Source of the DNA: Escherichia coli
GTDB taxonomy: Bacteria; Pseudomonadota; Gammaproteobacteria; Enterobacterales; Enterobacteriaceae
Reading direction: 5' to 3' (one strand)
Length of the DNA: 773 nt
Assembly: GCF_003334405.1 (NCBI RefSeq)
Contig: NZ_QOWM01000052.1
The first letter of the stretch is position 1; every line of letters begins with the position of its first letter. The translations under genes were made by a program, and so were the position numbers. The notes below the pieces were generated by a model that worked only from the letters and a program-made list of their open reading frames with translations, was not told the DNA's origin and did not search any database. Positions 1-773 of this stretch are shown here, in pieces.

Positions 1-773
1 GCCAGCGGCAGGCCGCGATGGTCGCAGTGGTACAGGTGGATTTTTCGCGCCGGCGTGTACACCGGGTCCATCTGGTTTTGCATCTGCTCCACGGTCAGGC
101 CGCACGATGCCAGCCAGCGGCGGCTTTCCTCACTCACCCGGTCAGCCAGGATTTCACTTTCCAGCCGGTCGAGCATCTGCACCAGCACCGGCGGGAACAC
201 CACACTGCCACCGTCTTCGCCGCCGGACTGCTGAAGGGTATCCGCCAGGCTGCGGCGCTGCGTTTTCGCCAGCTCACCGGTGGCGGTTTCAACCCTGATG
301 AGTGGCGTGAAGCTCCCCGGCTGATAAATCGTCTGGATGCGGGTTCTGTCGTTCTGTATCGTGGTCAGGCGGTCGCCGTCCCAGCCGTACCAGGTCACTT
401 GCGGTTTCCGTGACAGCGACATCCAGCCCGTCAGGTCCCGTTCACGCCGCCACACCCGTTTTGCCACCCTGCGGCCCAGCGGGTCGTAAAGATAGCGACT
501 TTCGACCAGCGGCTCTTCATATTGTGTCCGCGTGTAGTGCACCAGCCGGTGCTGACTGTCGTAATGGTACCGGTGAGTCCGCTCATCATCCGTGCGGATA
601 ACCCCTTCCGGGATGAGGTCGGTTTTCTCTGTCAGCCTGCCGTGACGGTCATACCGGTAAAGATAGTGCGCGTCACGGGCGATACGGTTATCCGGCCACA
701 TGCTGAGGGTGCTGTCCGGGTGCAGCTCCGGGTCGGGCAGGCGGTTACCTGCCGGGTCTGTGGCATACGGGAT
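1..773 (-). CDS. rhs: Rhs-family (YD-repeat) polymorphic toxin core protein, internal fragment; partial at both ends (N-terminal side beyond position 773, C-terminal side beyond position 1)
   Basis: Seen in sequence: the reverse-complement frame starting at position 773 (codon 1 = 773..771) runs 257 codons to position 3 with no stop, plus a 2-nt partial codon at 2..1. Hand translation: [258 protein letters not shown]. It contains canonical YD repeats ([42 protein letters not shown]) at roughly 25-38 residue spacing. Established knowledge, recalled not searched: this matches the C-terminal third of enterobacterial Rhs core proteins (E. coli RhsA/B/C-like). GC is about 63% by hand count, as expected for Rhs cores. 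The gene symbol is generic because core paralogs are near-identical and the distinguishing tip is outside the window. Confidence 0.93.

Follow-up and report, generated by a model that had tools for sequence, protein, structure and literature searches.

An internal piece of the Escherichia coli Rhs core and the polymorphic tips that follow it in related loci

The Rhs Core Fragment

The DNA considered here is a 773-nt stretch from Escherichia coli (the window), which holds an internal fragment of a Rhs core ORF along its whole length (1..773 (-)). Minus-strand frame 1 is open end to end for 257 codons plus 2 bases, with neither a start nor a stop codon of the Rhs frame falling inside the 773 nt on that strand, and GC content lies between 0.58 and 0.66 along the full length. 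Translation of the window gives letters identical to the minus-strand peptide quoted in an earlier, sequence-only reading of this DNA, the final 'A' of that peptide being valid because the two leftover bases begin a GCN codon, which is Ala. One contig alone, L023 (OUVJ01000009.1; 7,077 nt), was found to carry all 773 nt of the window without a mismatch (L023 2797-3569). It encodes a 1,411-aa E. coli Rhs core protein of RhsB type, of which the window makes up residues 899-1155.

Over residues 1-1247 the L023 protein scores 2,647.9 bits with the NCBIfam equivalog model NF041261 (RHS_core), whose cut-off is 2,000, and it carries 10 PF05593 matches at E <= 0.001 together with a TIGR01643 match (E 2.7e-41). 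DUF6531 is found near the N-terminus (residues 46-123, E 2.2e-17), while towards the other end PF03527 'RHS' spans residues 1143-1179 (E 3.9e-14) and TIGR03696, the Rhs-associated core domain, spans residues 1170-1247, with only the first 13-16 residues of this Rhs-associated region falling within the window. Of the 5,426 complete E. coli genomes searched by megablast, 3,885 have matches to the window, at 17,528 sites altogether (median 5 per genome). Nearly all of these sites are 95% identical or more, and their annotations read RHS element core protein, rhsA, rhsB or rhsC. The window therefore almost certainly comes from within the conserved core of a Rhs polymorphic-toxin gene of the E. coli RhsA/B/C type, and there is no evidence that contradicts its identification as Rhs core.

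YD Repeats and the Segment Lacking Them

Residues 36-139 of the window (357..668 (-)) form four beta-hairpins of the Rhs shell with canonical YD repeats, which were recognised by motif scan and by weak PF05593 matches. YD dipeptides occur in the window at aa 41, 71 and 96 only, the fourth repeat-like element being WYGWDGDRL near aa 129. The same residues align to shell repeats of Tse5 (8CP6) and of the Salmonella bongori Rhs protein (8QJD), and they form beta-strands in an AF2 model of the 349-residue C-terminal core region (mean pLDDT 66.6).

The sequence-only reading had described codons 140-257 as a conserved segment free of YD motifs, and in this it was confirmed both by the motif scan and by the presence of the window at 17,528 places in the complete genomes, far more than chance would give. 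As judged from alignment and from the AF2 model, this segment is made up of three predicted parts, a shell hairpin, a helical insertion that accounts for the bulk of it (see below) and, at the window edge, the opening strand of the C-terminal plug. The hairpin is the last of the shell (282..356 (-), window aa 140-164), lacks a YD dipeptide and is kept in other Rhs proteins, aligning to ...VHEPGGFVPLLRLE of Tse5 (8CP6) and to ...IYEPGSFTPLARYE of S. bongori (8QJD), with AF2 strands at window aa 144-150 and 157-164. The first strand of the C-terminal RHS / Rhs-associated plug (3..50 (-), window aa 242-257) runs past the window edge and aligns to IAFFHTDHLGTPL of Tse5 and KIRYYHNDLNGLP of Pseudomonas protegens RhsA (7Q97), with an AF2 strand at window aa 243-250. 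PF03527 matches this part of the window fragment alone (aa 245-257, E 0.016), and the last 10 residues of the window fit a degenerate YD-type pattern, Y-x-C-D-x-x-G.

The Core/Tip Junction in Related Loci

The flank beyond position 1 was read in relatives, with 75 loci analysed and the junction between core and tip read in the 73 of these with enough downstream flank. The expectation from the sequence alone had been that the core would continue for some tens of residues, about 0.2-0.3 kb, to a PxxxxDPxGL motif. This was borne out in 73/73 loci, in which the motif ends 92 codons (274 nt) past position 1, P....D[PS].GL finishing at aa 349 of the segment in each of them. The 92 residues from the window to the junction are nearly invariant, with the last ~20 co-varying with the type of tip, and similarity between loci stops at the junction motif. 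These residues do contain YD motifs, in AEYDEWG, QQYDEESG and RYYDPLQG, and make up the TIGR03696 domain.

Beyond the junction, the predicted shift to an AT-richer toxin domain was found, with GC falling from ~0.60 in the core to 0.31-0.45 in those tips of the relatives that are 37 aa or longer. Near-identical windows are followed by nine tip types unrelated to one another, which in their longest versions measure 120-178 aa. A small immunity gene had also been foreseen after the tip, and a same-strand ORF of at least 60 aa begins near the stop codon in 41 of 43 relatives, this set being limited to loci whose tip reaches 100 aa and whose downstream flank reaches 450 nt. In the common types this ORF is specific to the tip, encoding YhhH, YibA, YbfC or YibG (putative immunity proteins), of which YhhH is an Imm-NTF2-2 protein (E 1.2e-24), YibA a HEAT-repeat protein and YibG a Sel1-repeat protein. 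The tip of the RhsA type matches Ntox34 (E 2.5e-42) and is followed by YibA.

Judged on these related sequences, the earlier forecast of the layout of the flank is right, distance included, but textbook. The division of Rhs loci into core, tip and immunity gene has been textbook knowledge since 2011-2013. As a separate observation, tips cut to 0-81 aa by early stops were seen in eight loci on low-coverage metagenome contigs (L006, L020, L037, L041, L049, L062, L063 and L073), and these stops could be frameshifts, IS insertions or assembly errors.

Diversity of Tips and Independence From the Core

Among copies that differ from the window at one position at most, six different tips occur, all of them common and annotated in complete E. 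coli genomes. Four of these modules were searched for directly and were present in 1,893-3,640 complete genomes, with ETLKC.../ybfB found in 2,779 and VDINLY.../yibG in 3,640; by BLAST, ETLKC/ybfB and ASKYGH/ybfC belong to the rhsC locus and VDINLY/yibG to the rhsA locus. Across 69 loci the mean distance between windows was 6.65 within tip types vs 6.84 between them, a difference that 405/2000 permutations of the tip labels did as well as, and nearest neighbours shared a tip with a frequency of 0.16 vs 0.19 expected by chance. The sequence of the window is uninformative on tip type. The cores have evidently been homogenised among paralogues with tips exchanged independently, and with some 5 near-identical cores in each genome kept alike in this way, the window does not identify its tip. 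A window that lies inside a core both homogenised and uncorrelated with the tip is in consequence unusable for finding new tips, and the lesson to be drawn is that a core-only window is no guide to new toxin tips.

These findings bear on the proposal that a novel toxin/immunity pair lies in the flank beyond the window. The variable tip that it supposed is present in relatives; the novelty was not supported, the exact-match contig carrying the known RhsB-CT/YhhH pair. That the source locus itself has a previously unseen pair just left of the window is very unlikely. Rhs tips are highly polymorphic, and three of the tip types were seen once with an absent or weak Pfam match (L005, L019, L035), both of which would favour such a pair. 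Set against this are the RhsB-CT/YhhH module of the sole exact match, the occurrence of one of the six common modules in every copy with four mismatches or fewer from the window, the abundance in complete genomes (1,893-3,640) of the four common modules searched directly, and the lack of any handle on the tip in the window sequence. The tip next to the window had further been taken as the only place in the locus where a toxin/immunity pair could be found, a view that has to be abandoned because 10 loci carry additional orphan junction motifs downstream, the primary tip hence not being the sole site of such modules. A known module is thus the far better expectation for the flank of the window.

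The modules VDINLY.../yibG and ASKYGH.../ybfC were observed as promoterless downstream orphans in some strains and fused to a full-length core in others (L001 7333-8762 vs L012, L015 and L002, L004), which directly illustrates how recombination at the junction replaces one tip with another. Regarding the tip types seen once each among the 75 loci (L005, L019 and L035), one has a HAHAH motif, another a HEMGH motif with a weak match to Peptidase_M91 (E 0.0097) and another an N-terminal hydrophobic stretch with a weak match to Ntox33 (E 0.035). When tips were searched in isolation, or YhhH on its own, no NCBIfam model matched.

Alleles of the Window and the rhsB-yhhH-yhhI Locus

None of the 5,426 complete E. 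coli genomes has a 100% match to the window, the best being 99.9%. The four best matches, with one mismatch each, come from three loci (yibF-rhsA-yibA, ybfA-rhsC-ybfC and rpmE-rhs-metJ). The window is distinguished by its alleles at positions 93 and 453, each of which is absent from one or more of these best-matching copies. A scan with a gapped pattern spanning both positions found the two alleles together in no species-representative genome but in 71 metagenome contigs, of which only L023 matches the window at every position; nor does any complete E. coli genome have both alleles in a single copy. SNPs of the core are mixed between paralogues in a way consistent with gene conversion, and the allele combination of the window is ordinary mosaic variation.

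The same alleles raise the question of whether the source of the window is an rhs fragment (truncated or orphan) or a repeat contig that is collapsed or chimeric, in which case it might have no functional tip. Such an origin would explain why a window of only 773 nt has no exact match in a complete genome and joins two alleles each missing from one or more of the best complete-genome copies, and it finds some parallel in the truncated tips of several low-coverage metagenome loci. Contigs of 220-630 nt are the source of many partial Rhs proteins in the databases, showing that assemblies break within this repeat, and a repeat fragment of 773 nt is therefore a typical assembly product. The joining of both alleles in 71 metagenome contigs speaks against a chimera, as does the identity of L023 to the window over 773 nt within an intact ORF of 1,411 aa. 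In the case of an orphan source, the one orphan examined (L001 7333-8289) is 957 nt long, whereas a stretch reaching from the junction to the far end of the window takes 1,047 nt. Taken together a truncated, orphan or chimeric source is unlikely, and an intact core gene of the kind seen in L023 is preferred.

To the left of the window L023 continues to PISDIDPLGL and then to a tip of 164 aa matching DUF4329 (Tox-JAB-2; E 1.9e-38). The next ORF, of 127 aa, has a 29-nt overlap with the stop codon region and gives a match to Imm-NTF2-2 (E 1.2e-24). The contig represents the rhsB-yhhH-yhhI locus, which is present in 1,893 complete E. coli genomes at ~99.5% identity. In the catalogue of Zhang et al. 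2012 (PMC3482391), the partner of Tox-JAB-2 (=DUF4329) is Imm-NTF2-2 and that of Ntox34 is Imm-HEAT, the latter being the RhsA/YibA pair; the biochemical activities of both pairs are predictions in that study. The tip and ORF of L023 match the first of these pairs, with both elements lying outside the window. No functional study of RhsB-CT/YhhH was found in the searchable literature.

At the same locus a HEAT-repeat (YibA-like) remnant without a toxin follows yhhH (L023 1323-1583 (-), L076 2729-3079), with the ISEc1 transposase gene yhhI after it. This remnant looks like the debris of an earlier RhsA-type Ntox34/Imm-HEAT module.

Internal Promoters and the Antisense ORF

In Salmonella Typhimurium, internal rhs promoters drive expression of Rhs-CT and the immunity gene, with the P2 promoter driving toxin-antitoxin-like expression of the tip (PMC7043789). 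This precedent, and a plus-strand ORF at 18-413 that is 131 aa long in the window and 216 aa long in L023 (2559-3209 (+)), could be taken to mean that the DNA of the window has a second function as an internal promoter or an antisense gene. The coordinates of the Salmonella promoter count against the first of these, with the transcriptional start site 89 nt upstream of the sequence coding for the junction motif, and hence ~155 nt past window position 1, and with the promoter region ending ~55 nt past position 1 and so outside the window. As to the second, long antisense ORFs are expected in coding DNA of 62-66% GC, and the ORF at 18-413 probably arises simply from the GC richness of the coding strand. 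A second function is accordingly improbable in the extreme, leaving the window as coding sequence of the Rhs core. By the same mapping the Salmonella P2 promoter and start site would fall ~55-155 nt to the left of position 1 (L023 ~2640-2740).

Proposed Mechanism and Comparison With Known Systems

The core encodes a cocoon of YD-repeat beta-strands, of which the window supplies the last shell hairpins, the helical insertion and the first strand of the plug. In related loci the core ends at PxxxxDPxGL, followed by an AT-rich variable domain of ~130-180 aa, the predicted toxin, and by a putative cognate immunity gene. The PxxxxDPxGL motif is known to demarcate the toxin (PMC3150448), and in P. 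protegens RhsA the conserved C-terminal region spirals into the cocoon and seals it, acting as an aspartyl autoprotease through D1324 and D1346 (PMC8765631). By homology with other Rhs proteins and with Tc proteins, the plug may likewise act as an aspartyl autoprotease cutting after GL, with the toxin presumably held inside the cocoon and delivered by the T6SS through the N-terminal domain, as proposed from homologues.

QDPIGL and DPLGL each contribute an Asp (segment aa 323 and 345), the two being separated by 22 positions, the same spacing as that of D1324 and D1346, and by this likeness the pair would match the autoprotease dyad of P. protegens RhsA. The solved chains of Tse5 (8CP6_B) and of the S. 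bongori protein (8QJD_A) terminate at ...DPxGL. The N-terminal DUF6531 makes delivery by the T6SS plausible; no vgrG or other T6SS gene is annotated next to rhs in L001-L004 or L076. For the E. coli clade we infer autoproteolysis, encapsulation and T6SS delivery.

The known sequences closest to the window are E. coli RhsB and its paralogues RhsA and RhsC, whose annotated cores are 99.6-99.9% identical to it, and L023 matches the whole of the RhsB locus at ~99.5% identity. The window differs from these in joining the alleles at 93 and 453, which are separate in the best complete-genome copies. The solved T6SS Rhs effectors, namely RhsA (7Q97), Tse5 (8CP6), the S. bongori protein (8QJB/C/D), Acinetobacter baumannii Tse15 (8UY4) and Photorhabdus laumondii Rhs1/Tre23 (7PQ5), were the top Foldseek matches of the AF2 model and share with the protein of the window a shell of YD repeats and a C-terminal Rhs-associated plug ending in DPxGL. 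They have 3-26 residues where the protein of the window has its insertion of ~80 residues, and are otherwise 19-32% identical.

More distantly, the YD shells of the Tc toxin TcB-TcC and of teneurins have the cocoon fold and the C-terminal conserved region in common with the protein of the window, the Rhs-associated core aligning at E 1e-5 to 1e-9, and TcC shares its aspartyl autoprotease with P. protegens RhsA (PMC8765631). They differ in their distant sequence, in N-terminal capping and delivery, and in being without the helical insertion. The finding made in the window is real but ordinary, the Rhs core and the RhsB/YhhH pair being already known, and the window, which is among the most familiar repeated sequences of E. 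coli, matters little in itself.

A Helical Insertion Between Shell and Plug

The one feature of the window that is without prior documentation, and it is a minor detail, is a lineage-specific, predicted all-helical insertion of ~77-80 aa at the boundary between shell and plug (51..281 (-), window aa 165-241), defined by alignment and by the AF2 model. The alignments with sequences of solved structures span both flanks of the insertion, and at the corresponding site there are 5 residues in P. protegens RhsA (7Q97), 3 in S. bongori (8QJD) and 26 in Tse5. The AF2 model has helices at window aa 165-169, 176-183, 195-209, 215-223 and 228-234, bordered on either side by beta-strands, with pLDDT values of 85-92 over window aa 191-230, the part of the model predicted with the highest confidence. 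When modelled alone, the insertion gave a low-confidence model (pLDDT 62), and with this model as query Foldseek found no structural relative in the PDB (best E 4.7). A scan of the full-length L023 protein matched no Pfam family over the insertion, and literature searches found no paper that describes it.

A word-indexed protein search with a 120-aa segment brought back only short partial proteins. An exhaustive phmmer search found the insertion in only 131 clusters among 1.84 billion cluster representatives, all of them Rhs proteins or fragments save for three low-complexity false positives. The named carriers are E. coli, Salmonella, Citrobacter and Enterobacter, and on the basis of these searches the insertion is confined to enterobacterial Rhs; none of the solved Rhs structures has it. 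Three candidates for distant homologues of the insertion (P0206, P0226 and P0204) were dropped as low-complexity repeat or junk sequences. The insertion exists in versions of 87 aa and 82 aa, with 12 residues invariant at 49-68% identity between variants.

There is an outside chance that the insertion is a lineage-specific functional module of the enterobacterial Rhs cocoon and not a passive loop. If so, it might serve as a docking surface for VgrG, an adaptor or a chaperone, or as a latch on the C-terminal plug with an influence on toxin release, and it may be worth attention when the structure of an E. coli or Salmonella Rhs protein comes to be solved.
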